From an uncultured Eubacteriales bacterium (GTDB lineage Bacteria; Bacillota_I; Bacilli_A; RFN20; CAG-288): a stretch of DNA of 64,000 nucleotides. Of this stretch, positions 27,051 to 64,000 are shown in pieces. The notes beneath the pieces were generated by a model, which worked only from the letters and a program-made list of their open reading frames with translations, made no database searches and was not told the origin of the DNA. A program made the translations under genes and the position numbers. The stretch spans positions 14,028-78,027 of the forward strand of contig ONBI01000002.1 in NCBI GenBank assembly GCA_900316035.1, in the 5' to 3' direction. The first letter of the stretch is position 1, and each line of letters opens with the position of its first letter.

Positions 27051-27521
27051 ATGGAAAACGAAAAGAAGAATGTCGCTGTCGAGGAAGAGAAGAAGGAAGT
27101 TGCCCCGAAAGAGGAGAATGAGAACCTCACCTACGGATATCATCCGTTCTGGAGTATGCTCAATGATTTCTTCGGAGATGACTGCACGAGCGAAGATGTG
27201 ATGAGAACCGATATCTCGGATGAAGGCAAGGACTATAAGTTAGAAGTCGAAGTCCCTGGTGTCGATAAGAAGGACATCCATGTCGCTTTGAAGAATGGCT
27301 ATCTCACCGTTTCTGCTAAGGCCGATCGTTCGACTCGTGAAGGCTCCGGTAAGTATCTTCGCACGGAGAGATACTTCGGTAACTTCTCCCGTTCTTACTA
27401 TGTCGGCTCTCAGGTCAGCAAGAAAGATGTCTCCGCTGGCTATGAGAACGGCCTTCTGACGGTCCGTGTTGCAAAACCGGCTCCGAAGGCGGATGAGAAT
27501 AACGAGATCACCATCGCGTAA
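27051..27521 (+). CDS. Hsp20/alpha-crystallin small heat-shock protein, copy 1
   Basis: 156 aa. Alpha-crystallin domain (MRTDISDEGKDYKLEVEVPGVDKKDIHVALKNGYLTVSAK...GLLTVRV). Confidence 0.9.
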   Translation: MENEKKNVAVEEEKKEVAPKEENENLTYGYHPFWSMLNDFFGDDCTSEDVMRTDISDEGKDYKLEVEVPGVDKKDIHVALKNGYLTVSAKADRSTREGSGKYLRTERYFGNFSRSYYVGSQVSKKDVSAGYENGLLTVRVAKPAPKADENNEITIA

Positions 27522-27540
27522 CTTCTCTTTCTGATCGCTT

Positions 27541-27582
27541 AACCCCTTATCTGGAAATTCCCAGGTGAGGGGTTTTCTTTTG
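27541..27582 (+). terminator. rho-independent terminator after hsp20-1
   Basis: AACCCCT...AGGGGTT stem followed by TTCTTTT. Confidence 0.55.
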
Positions 27583-27751
27583 GCTTCCTGATTGTTGACA
27601 TAATATGTCTTTCTTTGAATTTGGACTTATAAAACAATTTGTTTTTAACCTTATACAAGTTCTGTTTTCACGTCCAAGAATGGCCAAATCCAAGAAAATT
27701 GTTTCTTAAATATTTCGATGCCTTCGGCCTTTTTAAAAGATTTTAAAAAAA

Positions 27752-27824
27752 TTAGCAGTTTGCACTTGAAATTGCTAAACATGGTCTTATAATCATATTA
27801 GCAATCGAGATAATAGATTGCTAA
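27752..27824 (+). promoter_or_regulatory. hsp20-2 promoter flanked by two CIRCE-like operators
   Basis: TTGAAA (27766-71), 16 nt, TATAAT (27788-93). Operators TTAGCAGTT-N9-AATTGCTAA (27752-78) and TTAGCAATC-N9-GATTGCTAA (27798-27824). Confidence 0.65.
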
Positions 27825-27852
27825 AACAGTGGATACAAGGAGGATATGAAGT

Positions 27853-28314
27853 ATGGAAAACGAAAAGAAGAATGTCGAAGTCGAAGAAAAGAAAGAAGTT
27901 GCGCCGAAGAAGGAAAATGTCCCTGCTTCTTATGCTCATCCGTTCTGGTCGATCTTCAATGATTTCTTCGATGATGGTACCGATGAAGATGTCATGAGAA
28001 CCGATATCTCCGATGAAGGCAAGAATTACAAGCTTGAAGTCGAAGTGCCGGGTGTCGACAAGAAAGATATCCATGTTGCTCTGAAGAACGGCTATCTTAC
28101 GATTTCTGCTAAGACACAGCGTAACAGCCATGAAGGCTCTGGAAAGTATCTTCATACGGAAAGATACTTCGGATCTTTCTCCCGCTCCTACTATGTCGGT
28201 AATCAGGTAGAGAAGAAAGATTTGGCCGCTAGCTACAACGATGGTCTTCTTACCGTTACAATCGCGAAACCTACTCCGAAAGAAGAAGAGAGTAACGAGA
28301 TCAGCATCGCTTAA
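27853..28314 (+). CDS. Hsp20/alpha-crystallin small heat-shock protein, copy 2 (tandem paralog)
   Basis: 153 aa, colinear with and highly similar to copy 1 along its whole length. Confidence 0.9.
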   Translation: MENEKKNVEVEEKKEVAPKKENVPASYAHPFWSIFNDFFDDGTDEDVMRTDISDEGKNYKLEVEVPGVDKKDIHVALKNGYLTISAKTQRNSHEGSGKYLHTERYFGSFSRSYYVGNQVEKKDLAASYNDGLLTVTIAKPTPKEEESNEISIA

Positions 28315-28356
28315 CATCGATATTAAATTCCATTCCCAAATAATCCGTTCCTTTTT

Positions 28357-28388
28357 GGCCTCCCGCCTAACCGGGAGGCCACATTTTA
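28357..28388 (+). terminator. hairpin / probable terminator after hsp20-2
   Basis: GGCCTCCCG-cctaa-CGGGAGGCC stem. The downstream U-tract is weak (ACATTTTA). Confidence 0.4.
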
Positions 28389-28454
28389 TATCTGGAAATA
28401 CATTGGGTAACACTATCTTTTCGGCAAGAGTGTTTCCTCGCTTCCGCGGGAAAA

Positions 28455-28916
28455 ATGGTTTGTCGAATAAGGGACAGCCCAAAACGTGTGGTTTTATCGA
28501 ATTGTTACGACCGCGAAAAAAGAGAAGAAAATCCGTTTGAAACAAGCCCTTTAATAAAGGGAAGTCTGCCGAAAAAACCGGTCAAAATCGATATTGACTT
28601 CCATTTTTCCTGCTGGTTTTTTAGGGAAAAAAGGGAGGCAGAAAAAATAATTTCTCTTGTCGTTTCCCTTCTCTTTCCCTTTGTTGTCATCGTCTACCAT
28701 GAGGAGCTGAAGTTTCCTTATACGGAGAGATCTCTTTTATGGGATAACCTTGCTGTCTTCTTTACTTTCTCCACTGGCATCGCGGCTAGTGTGTTCATAC
28801 ACTATTTTTATCCTGATGACATCTCTGCAGCAGCATTCATTGCCGATTTTTTATTTACAACAGGTGTGATGCTCAATAGGTTTCATAAAATCTATTCCAA
28901 GCAAAAGCGTGTATAG
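28455..28916 (+). CDS. questionable ORF; the C-terminal about 90 aa look like a 3-TM membrane protein
   Basis: 153-aa ORF. The hydrophobic part is preceded by AAGGGAGG plus 8 nt but with ATA/ATT rather than a canonical start. The N-terminal 60 aa are atypical. Confidence 0.25.
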   Translation: MVCRIRDSPKRVVLSNCYDREKREENPFETSPLIKGSLPKKPVKIDIDFHFSCWFFREKREAEKIISLVVSLLFPFVVIVYHEELKFPYTERSLLWDNLAVFFTFSTGIAASVFIHYFYPDDISAAAFIADFLFTTGVMLNRFHKIYSKQKRV

Positions 28917-29209: not shown

Positions 29210-29238
29210 TTTACACTTCCGCTTTAAACCTTTATAAT
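29210..29238 (+). promoter_or_regulatory. candidate promoter of pncB-nadD-nadE
   Basis: TTTACA (29210-15), 17 nt, TATAAT (29233-38). Direct TTACAC repeats lie just upstream or overlapping. Confidence 0.45.
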
Positions 29239-29269
29239 GGTAACGACATTTTTAAGGAGAACACTCGCT

Positions 29270-30781
29270 ATGATCAAAGTAGAACCCTACATCCCGGATG
29301 AAGACTATGACAATCCGGCGATGGTGACCGATTTTTATGAGTTCTCGATGGCCAACTGCCTCTATCTTCACGGATTCAAGGATAAAGTTTTAGTTTTCGA
29401 TATGTTCTTTAGAAAGAACCCTTCCGACATGGGATATTCGATTTCCTGTGGTCAGGATAAACTCACGAAGTTCCTTCTCAATTACCATTTCACGGATCGT
29501 GACTTGAAGTATCTCCGTTTCAAAGGAATGAGTGAAGAATTCTGTGAATACTTAAGAACCTATAAATGGAAAGGCGACATGTATGCCTTGAGAGAAGGCA
29601 CTGTCTGCTATCCGCAGGTTCCGATGGTCCGTATCGAATGCGATATGGTCGGTGCGATCCTTATTGAAACCTATCTTCTTCAGACGATGAACTTCCATTC
29701 TCTGATTGCGACGAAGGCGACCAGAATCTCCGGCCTTGCCACCCATCAGAAGAGAAGCGTCATGGAGTTCGGTACCCGTAGAGCACAGGGTGAAAGCGCT
29801 GGTAACGAAGGCGCTTATGCTGCGGTTTTAGGAGGTTGTATCGGTACTGCCAACTGCTTAGCTGAGATGAAATATGGCCCCGAAGTCAAAGCGGTCGGTA
29901 CGGTTGCCCACTCTTTCATCGAATTCTTCCCGACCGAGTTAGATGCTTTCCGTGCTTTTGCGGAAACCTATCCGGAGAATGTCTCTCTGCTTCTGGATAC
30001 TTACTCTATCTTTGAACAGGGATTACCGGATCTGATTACCATCGATAACGAACTCATCAAGAAATATCCGAACGATCCGAATAAGAGAGTCAAGTCTGCC
30101 CGTATCGATTCCGGTGACTTAGCCCGTGAATATAAGAAGCTGAGAAAAGCGTTAGACAAAGCAGGTAAACCTTATATCAAGTTGGTCGCTTCGAACTCTT
30201 TGGATGAGAAGAAGATGGCCAATATGGAGTTATATGAAGACGCTCATTTCGACTCCTATGGTGTCGGTGAAAGACTGATCACTTCGAGCGATGATCCGGT
30301 TTTCGGCGGTGTCTATAAATTGGTTGCTATCAAAAACGAGGATGGCACCTATGAACCGAAAATGAAATGTTCCGATTCTCCTTCAAAGGCAGTTATTCCT
30401 GGAAAGTTGATGGCTTGGCGTGTTTTTGATGAGAACGATCAGGGACAGTGCGATATTATCTCCCTCGATGAGGAAGTTATCGAAGCCGGAAAAGAAATTG
30501 AAGTCCTCAATCTCGACCGCGATGAATTCGACCGTCGTAAGACCATCAAGCCGGTCCGTGTGGAAAAGCTTTTAATTCCGTTTGTCATCCATGGGGAACT
30601 TGCTCAGAAACTTCCTTCTATCACCGAGAAGAAAGAATACATCCGCGATCAGCTGGAGCATCATGTCTGGGAATCCGAACTCCGTCCGGAAGTTCCGCAT
30701 GTCCACTATGTCGATCTGACGATGAAGTTAGCCAGCGTCCGCGAAAGCATGTACCATAAGCTCCACGGAGGAAATCTCTGA
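29270..30781 (+). CDS. pncB: nicotinate phosphoribosyltransferase
   Basis: Motifs MVTDFYEFSMAN and FGTRRAQG. Start set at MIKVEPY (29270), after AAGGAG. The listed ORF starts 33 nt earlier. Confidence 0.85.
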   Translation: MIKVEPYIPDEDYDNPAMVTDFYEFSMANCLYLHGFKDKVLVFDMFFRKNPSDMGYSISCGQDKLTKFLLNYHFTDRDLKYLRFKGMSEEFCEYLRTYKWKGDMYALREGTVCYPQVPMVRIECDMVGAILIETYLLQTMNFHSLIATKATRISGLATHQKRSVMEFGTRRAQGESAGNEGAYAAVLGGCIGTANCLAEMKYGPEVKAVGTVAHSFIEFFPTELDAFRAFAETYPENVSLLLDTYSIFEQGLPDLITIDNELIKKYPNDPNKRVKSARIDSGDLAREYKKLRKALDKAGKPYIKLVASNSLDEKKMANMELYEDAHFDSYGVGERLITSSDDPVFGGVYKLVAIKNEDGTYEPKMKCSDSPSKAVIPGKLMAWRVFDENDQGQCDIISLDEEVIEAGKEIEVLNLDRDEFDRRKTIKPVRVEKLLIPFVIHGELAQKLPSITEKKEYIRDQLEHHVWESELRPEVPHVHYVDLTMKLASVRESMYHKLHGGNL

Positions 30782-30782
30782 T

Positions 30783-31394
30783 TTGAAGGCTCTCTTTTTT
30801 GGCGGAGCCTTCAATCCGCCGAGTCTTGCACATATCGAGATGGCCTATGAGGCTATGAAAGCAGTCGGTTATGACCGCGTTGTTTTCGTTCCCTCCAAAT
30901 CTCGGTATATTCAAGAAGACGAAAAGAAAAAACTTCTTTTTGAGGAAGAAGAACGTTTCCATCTGCTCTCTCTTGTCGCTTCTACCCGTCCGTGGATGGA
31001 AGTTTCCCGTATCGAGCTGGATCAGAAAGAACAACCTCGAACCTATTCGACGATGAAAGCCTTAGCTCCGAAGTATGAATCTCTGAAGCTTCTTTTAGGG
31101 AGCGATAAGTTAGGAGAACTTGAAACCGTCTGGCGTCATATCGATGATATCGGAAAGGAATTCGGTTTTGTCTGTATGACAAGAAACCACGATAATGTGG
31201 AGAAGATCTTCGCAGAGAATGAATATCTGAAGAAGCGGAGATCTTACTTCCAGGTGATTTCCCCTTTAGAAAAATATCAGGATATCTCTTCGACCTTGAT
31301 CCGTGAGAAAATAAAGAGGAAAGAATCTCTGAAAGGATTGGTCCCGGAAGAGATTCGCGAAGAAGTTGAGAAAAAGGAGTATTCCCGAGTATGA
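30783..31394 (+). CDS. nadD: nicotinate-nucleotide adenylyltransferase
   Basis: FFGGAFNPPSLAHIEMA nucleotidyltransferase motif. TTG start with GGAGGA about 10 nt upstream. Overlaps the nadE start. Confidence 0.75.
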   Translation: MKALFFGGAFNPPSLAHIEMAYEAMKAVGYDRVVFVPSKSRYIQEDEKKKLLFEEEERFHLLSLVASTRPWMEVSRIELDQKEQPRTYSTMKALAPKYESLKLLLGSDKLGELETVWRHIDDIGKEFGFVCMTRNHDNVEKIFAENEYLKKRRSYFQVISPLEKYQDISSTLIREKIKRKESLKGLVPEEIREEVEKKEYSRV

Positions 31395-33337
31395 AGAATT
31401 CCTATGTAAAAGCCGGTCTTGCTCTTCCGAGCATGAAGATTGCGGATGTCTCCTATAACGTCTCTCAGGTGGAAAAACTGTTCCTCAGTCAAAATGACCT
31501 CGGCATTCTTCTTTTCCCGGAGCTTTCTCTTTCCGGTTATACCTGTGGAGATCTTTTCTTCCAAGATTCTCTCTTGGATGCCTGCTTAGAAGGACTGAAG
31601 AAACTGAAGGAAGATTCCAAGCAGAAGAAAGGAACTCTTCTGATTGTCGGTTTACCACTCCGCAGAGGAAATGCTCTTTATAATGTCGCTGCTTTGATCA
31701 ACGATGGCCATATCTTAGGCTTTGTTCCGAAATCGAATCTTCCGAATTATTCGGAGTTCTATGAACGCCGTTGGTTTGCTTCTGGCTATGGTAAGACCAA
31801 CCAAGTCGTATCTTTCGATGGGGAAGAAGTTCCCTTCGGAACGGATCTTCTTTTTGCCGATGACGATGCTATCGTCGGTGTAGAAATCTGTGAGGATCTC
31901 TTTGTTCCGGATAAACCTTCGACTCACCTTGCTTTAGGCGGAGCTAATATCCTCTGCAACCTCTCGGCCAGTGATGAGATCATCGGTAAGAGAGAATACC
32001 GTAGAGACTTAGTGAAGATGCAGTCTGCCGATTGCTACTGCGATTATCTTTATGTTTCTTCGGGGACCGATGAATCTTCAACCGATCTGGTTTTCTCTGG
32101 TCAGAGATTAGTCGGTGATAACGGAACGGTTTTAGTCGATGAGATTTATCCGGAAGAGAATTCTATCAAGACGGTTGTTCTGGATACGAGTAAATCAATT
32201 CATAACCGTATCCATCAGAACACTTTCCGTGTAAAGGATTCCCGCCTTTACCGGACGATTCCAACCGATATTCAGAGACTCGGAGAGAAAGAAACAACTC
32301 TTAGTGAACTCAAGAAGAAGTTAAGTGATGAAAACTTTGTAATTGCGCGTAATCCTTTCCTTCCTACCGATGAAGATATCGCGAAGAGAGCGGAGACGAT
32401 TCTCGCCATTCAGGCTCATGGTTTAGTAACCAGAGTCAGAAAGACACATCTTTATAATCTGGTCATCGGTGTTTCCGGTGGACTTGATTCGACGTTGGCT
32501 TTACTGGTGATGAAGGAAGCGCAGCGCATTGAACCGAAGATTCAACTGATTGCCTATACAATGCCGAACAAAGGAAACACTTCTTCCTTGACGTATCGCA
32601 ACGCACAGGCTTTGATGAAGGAATTAGGTTGTGAGATTCATGAAGTCGATATCCATAGCGGTGTGGCAAAACACCTGAAGGATATCGGACATAAAGAAGA
32701 ATACGAAGGCGAAAGAGATACGGCCTATGAGAATGCGCAGGCCCGTATGCGCACCTATATTCTGATGGATGTTGCCAATATGCGTTCCGGTTTAGTGGTC
32801 GGAACCGGAGATCTTTCCGAACTTGCTTTAGGCTGGTGCACTTATAACGGCGACCATATGTCGATGTATGGTGTCAACGCTTCGATTCCGAAGACTCTGG
32901 TGAAGTATCTTGTCCGCGCTTATGCCGATAAGAGCGAAGATATGAAACTGAAGAAGACTCTTTATTCGATTCTCGATACGCCGATCACTCCGGAACTGAC
33001 CCCGAATCGGAATGGTGTCATCGCGCAGAAGACCGAAGAGAAGATTGGGAAATACGATCTCAACGATTTCTTCCTCTTCTATCTTCTTCGTTATGGCTAT
33101 AGTCCGGACCATATTCTTCTTTTAGCAAGTCTTGCTTATCCGGAAGTTTCGCTGGCGGATCTTAAGAACGCCGAGAAACGTTTCTATTCCCGATTCTTCT
33201 CTCAGGCTTTCAAGAGAAGTTGTCTTCCGGATGGCCCGAAAGTCGGTTCCCTTTCCCTTTCTCCGCGCGGAGATTACCGTATGCCTTCCGATGCCGAAGT
33301 AGAGATGTATCTTCAGATTATCGATAAAGCAGAGTAG
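31391..33337 (+). CDS. nadE: glutamine-dependent NAD+ synthetase (CN-hydrolase plus synthetase domains)
   Basis: 648 aa. N-terminal nitrilase-like domain and the GVSGGLDSTLAL PP-loop. Confidence 0.85.
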   Translation: MKNSYVKAGLALPSMKIADVSYNVSQVEKLFLSQNDLGILLFPELSLSGYTCGDLFFQDSLLDACLEGLKKLKEDSKQKKGTLLIVGLPLRRGNALYNVAALINDGHILGFVPKSNLPNYSEFYERRWFASGYGKTNQVVSFDGEEVPFGTDLLFADDDAIVGVEICEDLFVPDKPSTHLALGGANILCNLSASDEIIGKREYRRDLVKMQSADCYCDYLYVSSGTDESSTDLVFSGQRLVGDNGTVLVDEIYPEENSIKTVVLDTSKSIHNRIHQNTFRVKDSRLYRTIPTDIQRLGEKETTLSELKKKLSDENFVIARNPFLPTDEDIAKRAETILAIQAHGLVTRVRKTHLYNLVIGVSGGLDSTLALLVMKEAQRIEPKIQLIAYTMPNKGNTSSLTYRNAQALMKELGCEIHEVDIHSGVAKHLKDIGHKEEYEGERDTAYENAQARMRTYILMDVANMRSGLVVGTGDLSELALGWCTYNGDHMSMYGVNASIPKTLVKYLVRAYADKSEDMKLKKTLYSILDTPITPELTPNRNGVIAQKTEEKIGKYDLNDFFLFYLLRYGYSPDHILLLASLAYPEVSLADLKNAEKRFYSRFFSQAFKRSCLPDGPKVGSLSLSPRGDYRMPSDAEVEMYLQIIDKAE

Positions 33338-54622: not shown

Positions 54623-56089
54623 TTACTTCTTATCTTCTTCGGTAAGAACGTAATTTCTTTTCTTACTCAGCGGAGCTAAACGTATTTTTCCTTCTTCTTT
54701 TAAGGTGCGTAGGAAGAGGGTGGCTTTTGACTCACGGAAGCCGAAAAGTTTACAGATATCTTTTCTGGTGAAAGAAGAGGTATTGAAAGCTTCTTTCATC
54801 TTCAGAAGCATCTTCTCTTCTTCTCCCATTTCCTCTTCGGGTATCTTGTTATTTTCTTCTGTTTCTTTTTTTATCAGAGGTAAAGTAAGAATTGTTCTAT
54901 CCGGGGACACTTTTTCTTCGAGAGTAAGATTCGGTAAACGGTATTTCTTCAGAGCTTCTTCCATCAAAGGGAAACCGGAACCTGCCCGTTCTCCGTAATT
55001 GAGAAAAGAAAGAAGCTTCTGAACAACGGCATTTCTCGGATCGGAATGACCGCCTTCTAACACTTCTTCTTTAGGAAGGCGGAGAAGACCTGGATTTTCG
55101 ATGACGATTTCATCCGGATAATGGCGGATAATTAGCCCCTGCGAATAAGCAAAATCGGCATTGCAGATGGCATTGACAACACCTTCTCTGATAGCCCGGA
55201 AAAGAAGAGCATCATCTTCTCTTTCAGCACTGCCTTCTTTCCAAGCAAAAGTATCTTTGGAATTCATTCGGATATGTTGAAGAGAAAGGCTGAGGAAATC
55301 AAAGAGATTTCCGCTCCAATAGCCGGAAGTGGAATAAACACGGTCGGAATATTTGGTAACCAGATCATGCGAAAGGCTATAGGTATAGTCGAGGAAATAG
55401 TAGGGGAAGCGGGATTCGATTTCCTCTTCCCTTCCAAAGAAGAGAAGGCCTTCCTTCGTAAGACCGATAGAGTCTTTTTCTCTTTTTGCAGCACCGATAC
55501 GAAGGAGAAAATCTTCTTTTTCTAAAGATAAGAAAGGATGACCAGGACGACTGTTCTGGAATTGCTGTCGATAAGAAACATAGCTTTCTTCCTGTAGAGC
55601 AGAAAGCGGAGCTATTAGCTTTGCATCGTTATCGTCCAGACTATCGGCTATCAGAGCTTTTACTTCTGGCTCTGGGCAAAGATAATCTCCATCCCGATTT
55701 CTCTTATAGGTCCCACGGAAAGGATTTCCATTGATATATACCGGCTTAAAATGTCTTTCCGCTTGAGGAACATGGATGGTGATAAGAGTGTAGTCCCCTT
55801 CTTTTATCACTTTGACGTCGTCTTCCTTGAGAAGATTGACAGAGACTTTCTTAGGGTCGTTCAGTAAATTAAAGAAATCTTTTAAAATCTTATCGGGATC
55901 TTCAATCTTGACCGGCGTAAAAGAACCATCCGCTTCTTCTTTTACTCCTAAAAAGATCACACCGCCAAAGGTGTTAGCAAAAGCGGAATAGGTGTCCCAA
56001 AGATTTGGTAGACCTTTTACTGCTTGCTTTGCTTCTATTTGATTATTCTCACGAAGCTTATCAAGATCTTTTATGCCAAACCGATCCAT
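54623..56089 (-). CDS. AlbA_2 (Schlafen-like) DNA-binding domain protein with a HATPase_c_4-like region and a C-terminal wHTH; putative transcriptional regulator
   Basis: The N-terminus QIEAKQAVKGLPNLWDTYSAFANTFGGVIFLGVKE is the AlbA_2 signature. The C-terminus FTRKDICKLFGFRESKATLFLRTLKEEGKI is wHTH-like. ATG 56089 is better spaced from the GAGGA than GTG 56095. Confidence 0.6.
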   Translation of the reverse strand: MDRFGIKDLDKLRENNQIEAKQAVKGLPNLWDTYSAFANTFGGVIFLGVKEEADGSFTPVKIEDPDKILKDFFNLLNDPKKVSVNLLKEDDVKVIKEGDYTLITIHVPQAERHFKPVYINGNPFRGTYKRNRDGDYLCPEPEVKALIADSLDDNDAKLIAPLSALQEESYVSYRQQFQNSRPGHPFLSLEKEDFLLRIGAAKREKDSIGLTKEGLLFFGREEEIESRFPYYFLDYTYSLSHDLVTKYSDRVYSTSGYWSGNLFDFLSLSLQHIRMNSKDTFAWKEGSAEREDDALLFRAIREGVVNAICNADFAYSQGLIIRHYPDEIVIENPGLLRLPKEEVLEGGHSDPRNAVVQKLLSFLNYGERAGSGFPLMEEALKKYRLPNLTLEEKVSPDRTILTLPLIKKETEENNKIPEEEMGEEEKMLLKMKEAFNTSSFTRKDICKLFGFRESKATLFLRTLKEEGKIRLAPLSKKRNYVLTEEDKK

Positions 56090-56133
56090 ATCCACATCCT
56101 CGTTTTGAATAAATTATATATGGTAATCGAAGC

Positions 56134-56343: not shown

Positions 56344-56712
56344 ATGTATTGTCCCCATTGTGGTAAAGAAGTGAAGGAAAGCGATTTGTTCTGCCCTTAT
56401 TGTGGGGCGGATCTAAGAAGAAGCAACTATAGCCAAAGTCAGGCGAATTATGTTCCGAGCGGAAACAGCTACAACGCTAACTCGGAATATTCTTCGAAGA
56501 GCTGGTTAGCCACTTTCCTGCTTTGGATGTTCTTAGGAACTTTTGGCGCTCATCGCTTCTATGTAGGAAAAATCGGTACCGGTCTTCTTTGGTTAGTCAC
56601 TTTCGGTCTTTTCGGTATCGGTTATATTATCGATCTTATTCTCATTGTCACGATGGATTTCACCGATTCAGATGGCAAGAAGATCGATATGAAGTACGAT
56701 AATCTACGGTAA
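56344..56712 (+). CDS. zinc-ribbon plus TM2-domain membrane protein
   Basis: CPHCG...CPYCG zinc ribbon. [22 protein letters not shown] is the TM2 domain signature. Confidence 0.75.
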
Positions 56713-56755: not shown

Positions 56756-57496
56756 ATGGCAAGCATAGAAAAAGATGCAGAAGTTCTTCAGAAGCTGATT
56801 GATGAAAGCCATCATATTGTCTTTTTCGGTGGAGCAGGAGTATCGACTGAATCCGGAATACCGGATTTCCGTTCTCAGGATGGTCTTTATCATCAGAAAT
56901 ATAAATATGATCCGGAAGTGATTATCTCCCATGATTTCTTCGAAGAAAATCCGAAAGAGTTCTATCGTTTCTATCGAGATAGAATGCTCTATCTCGATGC
57001 CAAACCCAATGCCTGTCATCTTTATCTTGCTAAGTTAGAAGAAGCGCATAAACTGGATGCGATTGTCACGCAGAATATCGATGGTCTTCATCAATTAGCA
57101 GGAAGTAAACACGTCATCGAAGTACATGGCAGTGTTCATCGCAATATCTGTGAAAGATGCGGAAAGGTCTATTCTGCGGAATATATCAAAGAAGAAAACA
57201 AGGAAGAGGTTCCGCATTGTCCAAGCTGTGGAGGCATTATCAAACCCGATGTTGTTTTATATGGGGAAGCTCTCAATGAAATGGATGTCACCAAAGCCTT
57301 GGTTGCTATCTCCCAGGCCGATTTATTGATTGTCGCCGGTACTTCTTTGGTGGTTTATCCGGCTGCCGGTTTTATCAACTACTTCCAAGGAAAACATATG
57401 GTTCTGATCAACAAGGATGAGAGCCAGGCCGATAGCAGAGCCGACGTCGTGATTCATCAGAAAGTAGGAGAACTTTTCTCCTTATTGAAAGTATGA
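56756..57496 (+). CDS. cobB: NAD-dependent protein deacylase (canonical sirtuin, CobB type)
   Basis: Motifs GAGVSTESGIPDFRS, TQNIDGLH and catalytic EVHGS. Zn ribbon CERCG...CPSCGG. Confidence 0.9.
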   Translation: MASIEKDAEVLQKLIDESHHIVFFGGAGVSTESGIPDFRSQDGLYHQKYKYDPEVIISHDFFEENPKEFYRFYRDRMLYLDAKPNACHLYLAKLEEAHKLDAIVTQNIDGLHQLAGSKHVIEVHGSVHRNICERCGKVYSAEYIKEENKEEVPHCPSCGGIIKPDVVLYGEALNEMDVTKALVAISQADLLIVAGTSLVVYPAAGFINYFQGKHMVLINKDESQADSRADVVIHQKVGELFSLLKV

Positions 57497-57981
57497 GCAA
57501 TCATCTTCTCAAAGACCCACAACAGAGAAGAGAGGAACTTGCCAGTGACGATTCTCCGTATTTCGGAGGATCTTCTTGTCTTCTTTCTCTTTCTTTTGTG
57601 CTTTATTATCTAGCGAATAAAACCGAGGATTTCCATTCTCTTTTCCCTCATATCGAAGAGCAGGTAGCTCTTCTTTATGAAGAGGATCCTCTGCTTTATT
57701 TCTATACTTCCGCTCCGAATCTCAGCGAAGAAGACGGAGTTAAAGTAAGCAAGTTCCTGGACGATTATTACGACCTCTTCACCCGATTGGATGATCTGAT
57801 TGTTTTTACGAAGGAAAGAGGAAGAACGTTTGCTCTTTCTTATCTTGAGGAAGATAGAAACTTCCTCAAGAATATTCTTTTAGATAACTTACATGCTTTC
57901 TCTAATAGAAATGATGTTCCGAACATTCTCAAAGAGAAAGTAGCTTCTCTTTCTTTTCAGGAGAATCTGAACCATGAATGA
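57493..57981 (+). CDS. hypothetical protein (162 aa)
   Basis: ATGA overlap with the cobB stop. Non-repetitive. No family recognised. Confidence 0.5.
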   Translation: MSNHLLKDPQQRREELASDDSPYFGGSSCLLSLSFVLYYLANKTEDFHSLFPHIEEQVALLYEEDPLLYFYTSAPNLSEEDGVKVSKFLDDYYDLFTRLDDLIVFTKERGRTFALSYLEEDRNFLKNILLDNLHAFSNRNDVPNILKEKVASLSFQENLNHE

Positions 57982-58342
57982 AGTAGAGAATGGTTTAAGA
58001 AGAATCCGTAAAGGAGAACATGATGAAGCCTATACGGCTTTGCTCGCTTCTTTACCGGCTTTGGATCTATTGAAGAAACTGATGGAACGGAAGAACCGTT
58101 CCAGACGTCCTTTTTCTTCTTTTTCTTTTGCGGAAGCTCATAAAGAGATCGAAGAAGCTTATGCGGTGATAGAGGATTCCTTAACTCAGGGAATCCGCTT
58201 TGAGGAATGTGTTAAGGTATTAAAGAACGTTTCGGATATCGCTTATAAAGCTTCTCAGGAGATAAAGATGCCCTCTTTGAAAAGCGATTATCTCTGGGCC
58301 AAAGATACCTTTGATTTGTCTTTATCCGCATTTCCTCACTAA
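57974..58342 (+). CDS. hypothetical helical protein (122 aa)
   Basis: 8-nt overlap with the upstream ORF. No family recognised. Confidence 0.5.
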   Translation: MNEVENGLRRIRKGEHDEAYTALLASLPALDLLKKLMERKNRSRRPFSSFSFAEAHKEIEEAYAVIEDSLTQGIRFEECVKVLKNVSDIAYKASQEIKMPSLKSDYLWAKDTFDLSLSAFPH

Positions 58343-58437
58343 AGAGAGTTACAAGAGTCTCAAATCTGTCTTGAAAAGAAGAAAAAACCACGCAGAATGC
58401 TATAATGACGGAGTAGTCAGAAGGAGGTCTTTTACTT

Positions 58438-58782
58438 ATGCCGAAACAATATGCGGAATGGTCCGATCGTAAGATTCTCATCGATTTACGTAATCGTTTT
58501 GCTACCTGCTATGAAAACGATGATGGATCTATTTTTTATATTGAACCGCAGTTCTATACCTATCTGCAGGGTTATAAGATGCAGCGTCCGGAACGTTATC
58601 AGGACTTGCTCGATGAGATGGACCGTGTCGTCCGTAAGAACCGCAAGGTCGTCTTTGTCGGACAGGAAGAGAATCCGCTAGTAGAAACAGACCACGCCAT
58701 TTACCTGACCGCCATGGATATCGCCGATAAAATCGGCTGTCTAGTCGAGCGGGAAAGCCGTGGCGCCGATTACGGAGATTAA
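58438..58782 (+). CDS. hypothetical protein (114 aa)
   Basis: AAGGAGG SD (58421-27). No family recognised. Confidence 0.55.
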   Translation: MPKQYAEWSDRKILIDLRNRFATCYENDDGSIFYIEPQFYTYLQGYKMQRPERYQDLLDEMDRVVRKNRKVVFVGQEENPLVETDHAIYLTAMDIADKIGCLVERESRGADYGD

Positions 58783-58787
58783 GCTGG

Positions 58788-60410
58788 ATGAACAAGAAAA
58801 AACTTTTTCTTCCCCTTACGGGAGTGGCACTGCTCTCACTGAGCTCTTGCTATTTCTTCTTTGGTCGTGATACAAGCGATACGAAGGCTTCTACCCAAAC
58901 CAATACCAGTGCAAAGCTGAAGCAGAGTGTCACCTATAAAACACCGAACTACACCTCTTCTATGACCAGCGAGAACATGAATATCGATAATATCGGATTA
59001 GGCTATGGTTATCATTACCTCCCTAAGACTGGTACCGATAAGATTCTCGTCGTTCCTTTCCAGACCACCGATTGCAAGTTCACTTCTTCGGAACTTACTT
59101 TGTTAGAAAAAGCTTTCTTCGGAGATGCAAACGAAACGGGTTGGGAATCGGTTGCTTCCTATTACAAGAAAGCTTCTTATGGAGCTTTGACTTTAACCGG
59201 TACGGTCACACGTCCTGTCACACTTCAGGAGTCCGCCTCTCAGCTTGAAAACGATGCCAGCAAGGTATCGGACGGACAGTATACGAACGATATTCTTCGC
59301 AGTGTTCTCAATGTCTTAGATAACGATATCGACTTCTCGGAATACGATGTCAATAACGATGGCTATATCGATGCCGTCTGGATGGTCTATGCTCCTTCCT
59401 ATGATGCAAGCTCGGATCTCTACTGGGCTTATACCACCTGGGCAACTTCGAACTCCCTTTTCGATGGCAAAAAAGCTTCCCTTTATTCCTGGGCGAGCAA
59501 GGATTTCCTGACGGCCGGTAAGTATTACAAGAGTTCTCTTTTAGGAGATACTCCTCTTGCCGATGCCCATACTTTCATCCATGAGACCGGTCATATGTTA
59601 GGACTTGATGATTACTATTCCTATGATGCCGGAAAAGATAAATCCTCTTCGACCTATTACGATTCTCCGTTAGGTGGAGTTGATATGATGGATTTCAATA
59701 TTGGAGATCATTGTGCGTTCTCAAAGTATCTTCTCGGTTGGAAGAGCCCGACTGTTGTTACCGAAGAATATCTCAAAGCCAACAACAATGTTCTTACCCT
59801 GAAGTCCTTCACCGAAAGCGGTCAGTCTTATCTGCTTCCGGTTTATAATGCCGACAACGAGATGGTTTATAACGGAACTCCTTTTGATGAGTACCTTTTA
59901 GTGGAATATTACACTCCGACAAATCTCAACTATAAGGATTCTCTCAAGGTCTATACGGCGAACTTAGGAACCTATACTAAATCCGGTGTTTTAGTTACGC
60001 ATATCAATGCGACAATCGGTAAAGTCGTTCCGAATCGTAGTGGGGATCCGGTCTGGGATGGTTATGCCTACGATAAACTCGGAACGTATAATACTTCTTG
60101 GGGCAAGAGTTATCTTTACGCTTATCTTTATAACAACACCAAATCCTATTGCTACGATAAGACATTAGACGATTCTGGTCTTCCTTTCTATCGCGGCCGA
60201 TTGATTTCCCTTCTTCCGGCCACCGGAAGCCGTATCAACGGCGCTAAGACCGGTTTTTCCAAGAATCCGTCTCTTTATACGCAGGGTTCTCATTTTGATA
60301 GTGTCACCTATCCAAATTTCGAATTCGATGATGGGTCTACGCCTCGCTATGGTTTCACCGTCTCGACGACTACTTCTACGAGCTGTCAGTTGACATTCAA
60401 GGATTTCTGA
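58788..60410 (+). CDS. lipoprotein, M6 / immune-inhibitor-A-like zinc metalloprotease
   Basis: Lipobox LSLSS|C. HTFIHETGHMLGLDDYY carries an HExxH motif with a GLDDYY context, as in M6 peptidases. Confidence 0.7.
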   Translation: MNKKKLFLPLTGVALLSLSSCYFFFGRDTSDTKASTQTNTSAKLKQSVTYKTPNYTSSMTSENMNIDNIGLGYGYHYLPKTGTDKILVVPFQTTDCKFTSSELTLLEKAFFGDANETGWESVASYYKKASYGALTLTGTVTRPVTLQESASQLENDASKVSDGQYTNDILRSVLNVLDNDIDFSEYDVNNDGYIDAVWMVYAPSYDASSDLYWAYTTWATSNSLFDGKKASLYSWASKDFLTAGKYYKSSLLGDTPLADAHTFIHETGHMLGLDDYYSYDAGKDKSSSTYYDSPLGGVDMMDFNIGDHCAFSKYLLGWKSPTVVTEEYLKANNNVLTLKSFTESGQSYLLPVYNADNEMVYNGTPFDEYLLVEYYTPTNLNYKDSLKVYTANLGTYTKSGVLVTHINATIGKVVPNRSGDPVWDGYAYDKLGTYNTSWGKSYLYAYLYNNTKSYCYDKTLDDSGLPFYRGRLISLLPATGSRINGAKTGFSKNPSLYTQGSHFDSVTYPNFEFDDGSTPRYGFTVSTTTSTSCQLTFKDF

Positions 60411-63400
60411 TGAGCATTGCATTTTACCGCGAGCAGGAGCTCGCTATCACCTTCCGTGCCGAATACCGAAAAGCGGTATTCGGTCTTTTCCATGTCGCTT
60501 TTCTGGATAACGAAGATAACTATGTGATTCCAAGTGAGGATAAGCCTTCGATTGAAGCAGCTCTTTCTTTCTATGAGAACTTCATTCTCAAAGGAGATAC
60601 GTATCCCGTTTACGATGGCAAGAATTTCTATGCCCAACCGGTTCGTGATCCCCGTGTCTTAAAACAGGTTCTTGGGTTACCGGATTCTCTCTATCGCCGT
60701 CTTGATCTCAGCAAGGATATCCTTTCGCAGATCACGTTTGTCGATGGGCTCAAGGACTTAAAGAATTCCTGCTATTATCTGATTCAGAGAGATAAGAAGA
60801 GCAGTTGGTCGTATCGGGATGATTTCAAACTTTTCTGCCTGAATTCGGGTGTCTTCTTCCTTTACGATGAGACGAAGCCTTTCATGAATCGGGAGATTAC
60901 TTCCTTACCGGTTTTCTTTGATGAATCCCGTTTTGATCCCGAACTGAAGACGCTTTATCATCAGGCGACCAGCGATCGGTTTGCTATCGATTTCTTAGGG
61001 GAAAAATGCACCAATGAGTTTGTGACGGAGATGAAGAAATACGATTCCTTCTCTTTACAGGAGCGAGTCGATTTCTTCCTCAACGACCGCTTTGATGCTA
61101 GACTTGCCGATCTCAATCAGGATCCTACCTTCCGAAGGAAGTATGAATTCCTGTTAAGAGAATACATTTCTTCTTTGATCAATGTCCTTTATGACCGTTA
61201 TTGCTTTAAGGTTCTGAATAAAGTCACTTCGAAACTCTCTTATCTCACGATTGCAAAGTTCCAGTCGCAGGATCATCTTGTCTATTCTTTATCGGCTTCT
61301 CATGCCGATATGTTCTCTTCTACGGGAAAAGAAGGAACCTTTGCTTTTGATCCGCAGGATAAAGAGAAGATTTCTTTATTGATTGATGAGACTCTGAAAG
61401 ATTGCCCGAACGGTTCTTTATTGACGATCTATAGTCATCTCGGACTTCCTTATGAAGGTTATGAAGCTATTCCGAACAAAGAGGAGCCTTTCACGAAAGA
61501 ATCCTTACTTGCTTCGCTTCCTTTTGAAGAGAAAGCAAGAAGTTCGGAAGAAAGATTCCTGACTGCTAAGAGATACGATACTTTCTATTCTTATCTCTCT
61601 GGCGAAAAGGAACATGAGATTGCTTTCTTAGGAAGAAGACTTTTTGAAGAGGGGGTTGAGATCATCTCTTCAAGACCTCTTTTAGAAGAGAATCCAACTA
61701 ACACCTTCACTGTCCGTATTTGGAACACACCGAAATGTGCTTCATTAGCCACTTTGTTCAGCGAAGAGAAAAATGTTACATTCTCTTTAGCGGAACAGGT
61801 CTATCCTTCTTATCTTCTTTATCAAGGCTTGGATGAACAGGACGGACTGAAAGAAGCTTTGAAGAAGTTAGACTATGCTTCGCAAGGAAAAGCGGCGGCT
61901 TTCTTCTTACATGCTTTTAAAGGAATCACGATTGAAAGAGCCGTCGACTTGATGCTTGTCACTTTCGATTGCCAGGAGATCAAGAGCGCCCAGCTTCTCA
62001 AGTTCTTCTTCTATGTTCTCCTTTATCCTCTTGCGATTGTCGAAAGAGAATGCCGCTTACAGGCAATCCGAGAAAACGATGCTTTGATTCTGGTTGCCTT
62101 AGATGGTATGCCGAATCAGTTTGAGACGTATGAACCGACGCTTCCTTATCCATATGTTTCTTATGGTAAGATTGCGTATTCTTTCCGCCGTTCTTTCTTC
62201 TCGAAACCATATCTATGTTCTTCGGAGAAGAATGCGATTGAAAGAAGTATTCAGTATTATTCCAACACCTATAAATCTCTTTTCCCGAAGAATAAGAAAC
62301 AGGCCGATGAGAATACTTTCATTCTCACGCAGATTGGTTTACCGAACGATATTGTTTCCGATATTGATTTCTCAAAGCCTCTGATTCCGCAACTTCCTTA
62401 TCAGGATAACCTCTGCCATCTCTGCCATCATACGATTCCGACGTATCATCCGACTCTTACCGATATTCCTTCCGGAAGAGATAACGCTTATCTCACTTAT
62501 CTTTTTGCTAGGGCTGCCGAAAACGGTGTCTTCCTTTCGGGAAGAATCCTCGATCAGAACTACGATTTAGCTTCTTTCTATGAACCTCTGAAAGATGGAA
62601 CTTATACGGGGTTATTCCATTTCGATCGAGCTTATATTCAACCTGTTCTGCTTCCGTATGTGAATGTCTCGGCGAAGATGGTTCTTGCTTTGCTTTCGGC
62701 TTTCTTCCCGAATTCCTTAGCCAATGATACCTACTACTCCCAAGTGGTTTCGTTCTTATCCTTAGGGGATAAGACGATTCAGCGTCTTATGTTTGATTGC
62801 CGAAAAGAAGACTATATGCTTCTTTTCTCCCATATGATGGTCTTCACCCATCTTGTCTTCCTCTATCTCGTAATCGGTGTTGCGTACGCCTATAACGTCT
62901 CCCAGGATATCATTCCGCCGAGTGAAACCGAGATCACGATGAATCTCGATTACAACCCTCGTCTTCTTTATCCTTATGTCATCTTAGGAAGGTACTACAA
63001 TGCCTACACCGATGATTTACGGAAAGGAGAATATTATTTCTGCTCATGTGAAAAGGAGTCTATGCTCTCGTTAGCAAAAGCTTTTGATCGCACCTATCAG
63101 CAGAAAGGATACGATCGGAAATTGGAAGCACCGATTCTTTTAGGCGTTGTCGGTGTACCTTACTTAGTCATTCTCAAGTATGCGGACTTTGATCTCAGCG
63201 AGAACTCGGTGGAAGATCTGATCGATGCAATTCCTTTTAAAGAGAGCATCTGCAGACGTTGTCTGAACGTCAACCATGCTGCCTTGATTCAACCTTTTAC
63301 CAAGGCTTTCCCATACAAGGAAAACAAGGAAGCGGAATACTCTTTTGCCGTCAATCGGATGATCCATGATGGCTTCCGTATCTTCTCGGATTACACGACT

Positions 63401-63835
63401 CCGGAAGTCCGCTATCATCCGGAAAGACACTACGATCTTTCTTTGACCTTAGGCGATAATCTTCCTTTCTTAGACTATACCGAAGACAATGTTCCGGAAG
63501 CTCTGTTCACCTTCTTTGTCATGTCGCAGGATACTCTGCGGAACCGTCTTTATGATTTTGCCAAAGTAGGTTCGAACAATGCGGAAGCAATTGCTACCGC
63601 TTCTGGTATTCTTTTAGACGCGAATCTTCGTTCTCCACAGGAAATTCTGGATCTGATGACCGATGATTTCAATAAAGTGACAAAAGATGCTTTACTGGAA
63701 CATTTCCCTGAAATTCAAAGAGTCCGGGAATCTTTCCAAGGACCGGTTATGCAAGCGATGATCGGTTTCTTCCTCTATCTTGTCCAAGAGCTCAACGAGA
63801 AGTATGCCGAATTAGAAAGCCACGTCGGGAGGTAA
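60410..63835 (+). CDS. large hypothetical protein (1141 aa) with two Cys/His modules
   Basis: TGATG overlap with the protease gene. No P-loop and no signal peptide. Contains C603...C669xxC672HH and C878xC880...C948xxC951 modules. No family recognised. Confidence 0.6.
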   Translation: MSIAFYREQELAITFRAEYRKAVFGLFHVAFLDNEDNYVIPSEDKPSIEAALSFYENFILKGDTYPVYDGKNFYAQPVRDPRVLKQVLGLPDSLYRRLDLSKDILSQITFVDGLKDLKNSCYYLIQRDKKSSWSYRDDFKLFCLNSGVFFLYDETKPFMNREITSLPVFFDESRFDPELKTLYHQATSDRFAIDFLGEKCTNEFVTEMKKYDSFSLQERVDFFLNDRFDARLADLNQDPTFRRKYEFLLREYISSLINVLYDRYCFKVLNKVTSKLSYLTIAKFQSQDHLVYSLSASHADMFSSTGKEGTFAFDPQDKEKISLLIDETLKDCPNGSLLTIYSHLGLPYEGYEAIPNKEEPFTKESLLASLPFEEKARSSEERFLTAKRYDTFYSYLSGEKEHEIAFLGRRLFEEGVEIISSRPLLEENPTNTFTVRIWNTPKCASLATLFSEEKNVTFSLAEQVYPSYLLYQGLDEQDGLKEALKKLDYASQGKAAAFFLHAFKGITIERAVDLMLVTFDCQEIKSAQLLKFFFYVLLYPLAIVERECRLQAIRENDALILVALDGMPNQFETYEPTLPYPYVSYGKIAYSFRRSFFSKPYLCSSEKNAIERSIQYYSNTYKSLFPKNKKQADENTFILTQIGLPNDIVSDIDFSKPLIPQLPYQDNLCHLCHHTIPTYHPTLTDIPSGRDNAYLTYLFARAAENGVFLSGRILDQNYDLASFYEPLKDGTYTGLFHFDRAYIQPVLLPYVNVSAKMVLALLSAFFPNSLANDTYYSQVVSFLSLGDKTIQRLMFDCRKEDYMLLFSHMMVFTHLVFLYLVIGVAYAYNVSQDIIPPSETEITMNLDYNPRLLYPYVILGRYYNAYTDDLRKGEYYFCSCEKESMLSLAKAFDRTYQQKGYDRKLEAPILLGVVGVPYLVILKYADFDLSENSVEDLIDAIPFKESICRRCLNVNHAALIQPFTKAFPYKENKEAEYSFAVNRMIHDGFRIFSDYTTPEVRYHPERHYDLSLTLGDNLPFLDYTEDNVPEALFTFFVMSQDTLRNRLYDFAKVGSNNAEAIATASGILLDANLRSPQEILDLMTDDFNKVTKDALLEHFPEIQRVRESFQGPVMQAMIGFFLYLVQELNEKYAELESHVGR

Positions 63836-63838
63836 CTT

Positions 63839-64000
63839 ATGGAATATACGGCCGATACCTTTGTCACCCATTCACAGAAAAGTGTAGCTACCCGTTACCC
63901 CACGGTTCTCAAAGGGGCTTTCTATTACGTTTATACCGACGAAAAAGGTGGCTATCATATGGCCAAAGAGGATGAGGCTTCTTTAAAAGCCCGCATCCGC
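63839..64000 (+). CDS. hypothetical protein, N-terminal 54 codons (continues beyond the window)
   Basis: GGGAGG SD, ATG 63839, and an open frame to the window edge (MEYTADTFVTHSQKSVATRYPTVLKGAFYYVYTDEKGGYHMAKEDE...). Confidence 0.45.
   Translation, partial: MEYTADTFVTHSQKSVATRYPTVLKGAFYYVYTDEKGGYHMAKEDEASLKARIR

Follow-up and report, generated by a model that had tools for sequence, protein, structure and literature searches.

An operon of RFN20 Bacilli that encodes two giant paralogous proteins, a lipoprotein protease and a small orphan protein matches no described system

The Mollicutes, wall-less relatives of the Bacilli, have lineage-specific giant cytoskeletal and gliding proteins, which are very large, clade-restricted and encoded in operons. 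Other described systems that resemble single parts of the locus studied here are the proteases of the immune inhibitor A (peptidase M6) type, the defence systems that contain a SIR2 domain, and a family of solitary proteins in which a small cysteine-containing module is joined to a nuclease-like domain. Here, we analyzed a stretch of 64,000 nucleotides (nt), hereafter the window, from an uncultured Eubacteriales bacterium of the GTDB order RFN20, family CAG-288 (GenBank assembly GCA_900316035.1, contig ONBI01000002.1, positions 14,028 to 78,027 of the forward strand). The last part of the window contains four consecutive genes, which we call A, B, C and D. This operon matches no described system, and only B and, remotely, a zinc module within C have relatives. 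A first-pass annotation of the same sequence had proposed that the genes form an undescribed orphan system, and had named two outcomes that would speak against it, namely homology of C to a characterized family and a lack of conserved co-occurrence in other genomes. Neither outcome occurred, and the proposal was borne out by the analysis.

The four genes and their expression signals are located in the window as follows.

58398..58406, + strand: extended -10 promoter TGcTATAAT of the A-B-C-D unit (from the sequence and its conservation across loci)
58421..58427, + strand: Shine-Dalgarno sequence AAGGAGG of gene A (direct sequence reading)
58438..58782, + strand: gene A, 114 amino acids (aa) (open reading frame, ORF, read from the window sequence)
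58788..60410, + strand: gene B, 540 aa (ORF read from the window sequence)
60410..63835, + strand: gene C, 1141 aa (ORF read from the window sequence)
63839..64000, + strand: gene D, opening 54 codons (the ORF runs past the window edge)

The spacing between A and B is 5 nt in the window, B and C are joined by a TGATG stop/start overlap, and C and D are separated by 3 nt, with GGGAGG ahead of D. The sequence TATAAT at positions 58401-58406 is part of the extended -10 element TGcTATAAT. A check against the sequence confirmed all of the ORF coordinates, gaps and motifs reported in the first-pass annotation (TGATG overlap, TATAAT, AAGGAGG and GGGAGG), and such a set of signals lies well beyond chance expectation. 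The window locus recurs identically on an 84-kb metagenome contig (L001), which overlaps the window and encodes the exact C protein. The downstream extension that had been recommended could thereby be made: the fourth ORF, D, is 1170 aa in full length (L001:13430-16942), and the end of the operon was found on the same contig. An inverted repeat marks the end of D, and the next gene, for a HAD hydrolase, is convergent; the operon therefore terminates with D. A generic promoter and terminator scan was uninformative, with the same counts as in shuffled sequence.

To survey the locus, one genome per GTDB species was scanned, which yielded 31 loci (numbered with the prefix L). All of these were from metagenome-assembled genomes of uncultured Bacilli from gut, rumen and digester, including Candidatus Enterosoma (L025, L033 and L014) and UBA7642. 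Candidatus Enterosoma corresponds to the GTDB genus UBA7642 of the order RFN20 and family CAG-288 (PMC8035907), a family predicted to lack peptidoglycan and to be non-sporulating (PMC10868615). The gene order A-B-C-D was retained in essentially every locus of these 31 species-level genomes of RFN20-type Bacilli. The median spacing across loci was 2.5 nt between A and B, -0.5 nt between B and C, and 2 nt between C and D, and gaps of 0-3 nt persist even where C is just 29-48% identical to the window protein. In four loci (L004, L030, L035 and L036) both flanks differ and the A-(B)-C-D cassette alone is conserved. The genes thus stay together even in different genomic contexts, and the missing co-occurrence anticipated as a possible refutation was not observed. 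In 25 of 31 other loci, the element TGNTATAAT was found 16-31 nt 5' of the start codon of A; this pattern has 49 occurrences on both strands of 1.3 Mb of locus sequence, and about 0.003 are expected per 86-nt window.

Estimates of selection and divergence were obtained for each gene. The ratio of nonsynonymous to synonymous substitutions (dN/dS) in close pairs was 0.02-0.06 for A, 0.04-0.13 for B, 0.07-0.15 for C and 0.10-0.29 for D. The mean pairwise identity was 0.77 for A, 0.54 for B, 0.39 for C and 0.31 for D, as compared to 0.68 for a neighboring sirtuin. The divergence of C correlated with that of D (Spearman 0.76), and both correlated with the divergence of the sirtuin (0.57 for C and 0.69 for D), which indicates that C and D have co-evolved vertically. 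The relatives of C form only 35 sequence clusters among 5.8 billion proteins, each of 1116-1146 aa and each free of Pfam domains. No relative of C was found in phage, plasmid or IMG/VR viral-contig collections, and an association of C with mobile elements was dismissed on the basis of these zero matches. The cassette occupies a conserved position in the recovered genomes and does not show the patchy, horizontally mobile distribution of defence systems. It covers approximately 10 kb of a genome of approximately 2 Mb, as estimated with the help of a 2.08-Mb contig among the locus sources. Thus, A-B-C-D is a clade-specific, vertically inherited unit that is transcribed from an extended -10 promoter of its own and in which the genes are translationally coupled. 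The claim of a co-directional, tightly packed operon in the first-pass annotation is hereby confirmed and extended, since order, spacing and promoter are conserved across the loci and all four genes are under purifying selection.

C and D, of approximately 130 kDa each, are full-length paralogues, as is evident from both BLASTP (E 2e-14) and hhalign (probability 100, E 2.8e-50, 1053 columns). The two halves of C also align with each other (hhalign probability 97.2, E 3.5e-11, 488 columns). In each of the two proteins, a two-module unit has been duplicated internally, giving four modules of approximately 170 aa that are split by helical regions. The modules of C are located as follows.

60410..60814, + strand: module 1, degenerate, without zinc ligands (hhalign versus module 3, probability 97.3)
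61202..61609, + strand: module 2, degenerate, without zinc ligands (hhalign versus module 4, probability 95.4)
62102..62524, + strand: module 3, predicted zinc site C603, position 605, C669, H670 and C672 (invariant columns)
62921..63334, + strand: module 4, predicted Cys4 site C878, C880, C948 and C951, with H956 near (invariant columns)

Modules 3 and 4 are closely similar (hhalign probability 99.3, E 1.7e-20), and the cysteine motifs of C are CHLC (669), CSC (878) and CRRC (948). At position 605 (window 62222-62224), 19 of 32 sequences have Cys, and the window protein and 13 of 32 homologues have Ser, while H670 is invariant. The coordination at the module 3 site may alternate between Cys4 and Cys3His. 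D also contains the module but has lost its Cys residues, with zero conserved cysteines in the D family. Thus, two modules of C retain a predicted Cys4 (CxC...CHxC) zinc site, and D retains none. The earlier description of C as a giant cytoplasmic Cys-motif protein is refined by these results: the motifs represent two predicted Cys4 zinc sites in a repeated module, and the fourth ORF encodes a paralogue of C.

We searched for relatives of the giant proteins at the level of both sequence and structure. C displayed no match in Pfam, NCBIfam, PADLOC, PHROGs or the PDB sequences, and D matched zero families in scans of Pfam, NCBIfam, PADLOC and PHROGs. No recurrent family was observed when the 32 homologues of C were compared with Pfam at E<=1. 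An AlphaFold2 model of C, built with the 32 homologues, had a predicted local distance difference test (pLDDT) score of 89.1 and a predicted template modeling (pTM) score of 0.79, and showed four beta-meander-plus-helix modules that alternate with helical regions. Foldseek returned 0 matches to this model at E<=1e-3, the best being E 0.95 in the PDB and E 0.57 in BFVD; a match to DSR2 (E 4.7) was considered noise. The absence of structural relatives refers to the PDB and BFVD for C, and to the PDB for A. The description of the 1141-aa protein as unclassifiable is consistent with all of these results, in that neither the family libraries, the PDB sequences nor Foldseek revealed homology to a characterized family.

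Sequence motifs were also inspected in A, C and D and in two small proteins encoded upstream, o162 and o122. All five of these proteins are acidic, and none has a signal peptide or a conserved transmembrane segment; C, like A, is classed as soluble. A, C and D contain no lipobox, coiled coil or polymer-forming motif. A, B and C contain no Walker A motif (P-loop). The Walker-A-like string ARGINGKS in D (residues 1123-1130, L001 16795-16818) is not conserved at the level of at least 90% in the D family and is probably due to chance. A machine of the SMC/condensin type, or another nucleoside triphosphatase (NTPase) machine, was rejected on the basis that there is no conserved Walker A/P-loop in A-D. 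Setting the non-conserved string in D aside, the earlier statement that the non-lipoprotein ORFs show no P-loop, catalytic signature or signal peptide was correct. We consider it very probable that A-B-C-D is a genuine, functional and clade-specific operon, that its products very probably act together, and that C and D probably constitute a pseudo-symmetric pair with zinc sites only in C.

Protein A is soluble and acidic (isoelectric point, pI, 4.8) and is the most conserved member of the operon. Its relatives fall into 71 clusters, which have an identity of 57% or more and are confined to this clade. The AlphaFold model of A (pLDDT 88, pTM 0.80) displays a compact mixed beta/alpha core with five strands, followed by a low-confidence tail in which the final 15 residues or so have pLDDT values of 47-61. 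This disordered C-terminal tail has a near-invariant SDYGD ending. A showed no significant Foldseek match in the PDB (best E 0.29), its profile found nothing significant among the PDB sequences (best E 0.28), and zero families were matched in Pfam, NCBIfam, PHROGs and PADLOC. The weak top Foldseek matches of A included several PD-(D/E)XK nucleases (EcoO109I, EndoMS, BamHI and Bax1), which were dismissed as noise (TM-score <=0.27, E>=0.29). The possibility that A represents a further, fifth copy of the module of C and D was rejected, with an hhalign probability below 3% versus every module.

B is the only product of the operon that could be recognized directly, and its two diagnostic motifs are located as follows.

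58839..58850, + strand: lipobox L-S-S-C, B residues 18-21 (from the sequence; Cys21 conserved)
59580..59612, + strand: zinc-binding and catalytic motif HETGHMLGLDD (HEXXHXXGXXD), B residues 265-275

The N-terminus of B reads MNKKKLFLPLTGVALLSLSS-C21, with a hydrophobic window at residues 6-24, and Cys21 is kept in 97% of the B homologues. The motif HTFIHETGHMLGLDDYY of the first-pass annotation was confirmed in B, and the string HETGHxxGLDDYY is at least 90% conserved among 32 members of the B family, which also share many invariant residues. B matched TIGR03296 with E 2e-28 and 100.1 bits, under the cut-off of 110.8, and Pfam PF05547 (Peptidase_M6) with E 3.8e-4 and 20.3 bits, under the cut-off of 22. 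No relative was found when the B sequence was compared with the PDB. Since the scores are below the curated thresholds of both models, we refer to B as M6-like rather than as a certified member of the family. Judging from its motifs, B is an M6-like zinc protease that is anchored by a lipid and retains an intact active-site motif. The prior recognition of the lipoprotein as M6-like, and as the only recognizable member, agrees with the TIGR03296 match, the lipobox LSSC (Cys21) and the HETGH motif.

The only distant homology of the giant proteins was found for module 3. An exhaustive HMMER search with the C profile against 1.84 billion representative proteins returned only the C family, the D paralogues, fragments, and approximately 100 shorter proteins (150-650 aa) that match module 3 alone. 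The shorter proteins match positions 564-730 of the C profile at E values of 1e-18 to 1e-7, and they were recovered again with a hidden Markov model of the module. They share the pattern LP.P.V...CxC...FKD.ICHxCN, in which the four Cys residues are invariant in 48 of 48 sequences. Most of the shorter proteins continue into a C-terminal domain with the pattern GESW...ELDIYI...EYQGxQH, which displays a weak match to DUF2726 in 10 of the 48 sequences. With E values of 1e-19 to 1e-7, the same domain clearly matches PHROGs whose annotation is homing, HNH or intron-encoded nuclease. DUF2726 has been placed in the PD-(D/E)XK superfamily (PMC3424549). This nuclease-like domain was not found in C or D, and the matches of the short proteins end at the module.

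The module by itself matches phrog_19778 and phrog_27771, and a few of the shorter proteins carry fused TerB_N or CpXC domains. It has no model in Pfam, NCBIfam or PADLOC, and nothing significant was obtained when profiles of the module and of the shorter proteins were compared with the PDB sequences. The module-nuclease-like proteins are encoded by single genes in variable genomic contexts, which give no hint about function. Matches were found in 88 phage records, including gene 29 of Clostridium phage phiCT19406A (L042 3992-5080), which is located directly upstream of the genes for the small and large terminase subunits. The slot ahead of the terminase genes is often held by packaging-associated HNH nucleases. 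Full-length copies of the phrog_19778 type were also observed in Staphylococcus SPbeta-like phages.

Upstream of the operon, four co-directional genes were identified in the window.

56344..56712, + strand: zinc-ribbon and TM2-domain membrane protein, 122 aa (Pfam TM2 1.4e-19, Zn_Ribbon_1 2.9e-10)
56756..57496, + strand: sirtuin, NAD-dependent protein deacylase, 246 aa (Pfam SIR2 9e-59)
57493..57981, + strand: o162, acidic 162-aa protein of no known family (14 loci by tblastn)
57974..58342, + strand: o122, 122-aa protein of no known family (found in 26 loci)

The TM2 gene lies upstream in many loci and is absent in L004, L030, L035 and L036. The sirtuin, which is 61-77% identical among loci and adjoins the cassette in most of them, is likewise not found beside it in four loci. 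It matches the NCBIfam equivalog NF001752 with 332 bits versus a cut-off of 221 and is, by this assignment, an ordinary canonical deacylase. Its stop codon overlaps the start codon of o162 (ATGA). Scans of Pfam, NCBIfam, PADLOC and PHROGs gave zero family matches for o162 and o122. In L027 and L028, o122 has no stop codon and continues in frame into A, giving an ORF of 275 aa (L027 7584-8411) in which an internal start, GAGGAGG-GTG, is kept in both loci. Six species contain a single ORF of 237-269 aa (e.g., L017 1798-2511), which is probably a fusion of o162 and o122; its C-terminal half is o122-like (BLASTP E 1e-11), and its N-terminal half is o162-like by position, with weak similarity in sequence (hhalign E 8e-4). 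The three small orphan genes o162, o122 and A are thus fused in differing combinations in different species, and by this genomic criterion o162 and o122 are tied to the cassette. Because the TM2, sirtuin, o162 and o122 genes are absent beside the cassette in four loci, we classify them as accessory genes or frequent neighbors. The suggestion that the whole 56.3-64 kb block forms a larger unit holds in part: o162 and o122 are linked by the fusions, but the sirtuin is a plain deacylase. The core cassette has its own promoter.

The wider surroundings of the operon vary between genomes. A 490-aa protein with Schlafen/AlbA_2 and HATPase_c_4 domains is encoded at 54623-56095 (- strand) of the window, between the genes for pyruvate:ferredoxin oxidoreductase (PFOR) and the TM2 protein, and also in L001. 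Other genes are found at this position in L002 and L005 (extra zinc-ribbon proteins or an 822-aa protein), and it looks like a variable insertion spot beside the cassette. Downstream of the cassette, AAA_15/AAA_21 and RloB genes were observed in L002 (17068-18925) and an AbiEii gene in L005 (19833-20702). Since these two loci carry defence-type genes where the window genome has the convergent HAD hydrolase gene, the downstream flank is also variable. The window appears to be origin-proximal, since its regions at approximately 17.9-25 kb and 38.7-43.8 kb contain rpmH-rnpA-yidC-jag(R3H), secE-nusG and gyrB-gyrA. The cassette of the distant loci L004 and L035 adjoins a cluster of a 294-304-aa protein of no known function and Phos_pyr_kin, with nusG-secE close by in L004; in the window, this cluster is located approximately 35 kb from the cassette. 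A cluster for NAD salvage and synthesis (NAPRTase, a nadD-type nucleotidyltransferase and NAD synthase) is present at 29237-33337 and adjoins two HSP20 genes (27051-28916), with no evident link to the operon.

As for the function, we tentatively favor a model that we regard as possible rather than probable, in which C and D are a nuclease-free scaffold that binds nucleic acid or another polymer, with A as a docking partner and B as an extracytoplasmic partner. C and D would form a pseudo-symmetric heterodimer, with one zinc-bearing subunit and one degenerate partner. The heterodimer would represent a domesticated array of nuclease-associated modules that serves in recognition, and its ligand would most likely be nucleic acid, or else another polymer. 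A, along with o162 and o122, may dock via the disordered tail of A that ends in SDYGD, and B would be produced in a fixed ratio with the others and act at the outer membrane face of the wall-less cells. The complex would perform a core housekeeping function of the lineage and would not be a mobile defence element. A broader and unlikely version is that the domesticated module, in eight copies in the two giants, forms together with the 13-kDa partner and the surface protease a membrane-straddling core machine of the wall-less gut Bacilli, for example one that couples the handling of the chromosome or other nucleic acids to the cell surface.

Several observations speak against the scaffold model. 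One of its two main weaknesses is the exported protease encoded between cytoplasmic-looking proteins, which a scaffold leaves unexplained. There is also variation in the position of B, since L036 has no B between A and C and L035 has B elsewhere. The heterodimer is predicted solely from the paralogy of C and D and the coupling of their genes, and another weakness is that the role of the module in the solitary nuclease-like proteins gives the scaffold no functional anchor. The other main weakness is the charge: A, C, D and each of the four modules have an acidic or neutral pI (4.8-7.6), which disfavors binding to nucleic acids; basic charge was looked for as a sign of DNA binding and was not found. 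A search of A, C and D for enzymatic motifs was also negative.

Alternatively, the operon products may be a machine of the envelope, or one for cell shape, in the wall-less lineage, with C and D as a large cytoplasmic scaffold or cytoskeletal element that is tethered to the membrane, possibly by the TM2 protein, and works with B. This alternative, which we consider doubtful, is consistent with the confinement of the cassette to RFN20 Bacilli and the predicted lack of peptidoglycan in CAG-288, with the vertical inheritance and core-gene-like behavior, with the tight coupling of the lipoprotein gene to the operon in 30 loci, with the TM2 membrane protein often encoded upstream, and with the share of the genome devoted to the cassette (approximately 10 kb of 2 Mb). 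However, A, C and D have neither membrane segments, coiled coils nor polymer-forming motifs, genes for division or shape were not found to be linked to it, and the sole homology clue is to nuclease-associated modules. Another alternative is that C, D and perhaps A leave the cell by a non-classical route, and that B processes or displays them as an adhesin or toxin complex at the surface. It would fit with the gene for this extracytoplasmic protease being embedded between A and C, with overlapping stop and start codons, and with the fast evolution of C and D, which exceeds that of the other members and is common in surface proteins. Nevertheless, such a route is very unlikely, as A, C and D lack a signal peptide, lipobox and transmembrane segment, no gene for a secretion ATPase or translocon was seen in the examined loci, Cys4 zinc sites that are conserved typically belong to intracellular proteins, and dN/dS is well under 1. 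Type VII secretion was rejected separately: the model of A shows a five-stranded beta/alpha fold and not a WXG100 hairpin, and no FtsK/SpoIIIE ATPase is encoded in the examined loci.

The homology of the module to phage and bacterial nuclease-like proteins, some with TerB_N or CpXC fusions, would suit an anti-phage or conflict system in which C and D sense foreign nucleic acid via the phage-nuclease modules and A and/or B are effectors. The variable defence-type neighbors (Schlafen/AlbA_2 in the window, AAA_21 and RloB in L002, AbiEii in L005) and the fast evolution of C and D point in the same direction. Still, we regard a defence role as quite unlikely, because A, C and D match 0 families of PADLOC-DB 2.0 at E<=0.01 and domains of the nuclease, NTPase, TIR or any other effector type were not detected. 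In addition, the cassette has a conserved position in every recovered genome and diverges in step with housekeeping genes, its dN/dS of 0.02-0.29 is low, A is more conserved than the sirtuin, and the cassette is not found in phage, plasmid or viral-contig collections. A check for linkage to defence or secretion genes, as recommended in the first-pass annotation, was accordingly positive only for the variable defence-type genes that flank some loci, with no secretion genes and no PADLOC match for A, C and D. Finally, the upstream PFOR and sirtuin genes are also syntenic in most loci, and the gene order might persist merely because the clade is narrow, with no functional unit behind it. This explanation is highly improbable and already largely refuted by the cohesion of A-(B)-C-D in L004, L030, L035 and L036 despite different flanks, by the 0-3 nt gaps that are kept where C is only 29-48% identical, by the conserved shared promoter, and by the co-divergence of the C/D paralogues and the o122-A fusions.

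The scaffold model and its alternatives all concern an operon to which these bacteria devote approximately 10 kb of a 2-Mb genome under purifying selection, and four or five of the products belong to no described family. For A and C, confident predicted structures were obtained that have no detectable structural relative in the PDB or BFVD, and the operon products are a good target for structural genomics. The analysis also defined a previously unmodeled, predicted Cys4 zinc domain that is common to phage nuclease-like proteins, and provides a clear case in which such a module has been co-opted, minus the nuclease, into giant host proteins. Bacteria of the RFN20 group are common in the gut yet uncultured, with a predicted loss of the cell wall, so that a core machine of the lineage would offer an entry to their cell biology. 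If the broader membrane-straddling version is true, the operon would encode a new class of cellular apparatus, made of folds without a detectable relative.

The comparison with described systems can be made for each part of the operon. For B alone, the likeness is to immune inhibitor A and peptidase M6, with which it shares the HEXXHXXGXXD motif, similarity to TIGR03296 and predicted export as in the InhA-type proteases. It differs in being sub-threshold and lipid-anchored, in having no sequence relative in the PDB, and in being encoded in an operon with three unclassifiable proteins. The locus resembles the SIR2 defence systems (Thoeris ThsA, DSR1/2 and SIR2-HerA) in that a gene with a SIR2 domain is located directly upstream and is translationally coupled to o162. 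Here, however, the gene encodes a stand-alone deacylase equivalog of 246 aa, which is absent beside the cassette in four loci. The giant cytoskeletal and gliding proteins of the Mollicutes are similar to C and D as an analogy at the level of a possible role and not by shared ancestry, as there is no relationship in sequence or fold and C and D have no coiled coils or membrane anchors.

The nearest relatives by sequence are the solitary proteins that combine the module with a PD-(D/E)XK or homing-endonuclease-like domain, which share with C the module of approximately 170 aa with four invariant Cys residues. These proteins are 300-400 aa, contain one module and a nuclease-like domain, and are encoded by single genes that are often phage- or mobile-adjacent, whereas C and D have four modules each and no nuclease domain, and are chromosomal and vertically inherited. 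The solitary family is itself uncharacterized. Another relative is P0137, a 580-aa protein from another low-GC organism, for which no match was found in phage, plasmid or JGI contig collections. P0137 is a stand-alone protein of half the size of C, and its module-helical-module-helical layout corresponds to one half of C, which suggests that it possibly represents the ancestral form of the giant proteins.

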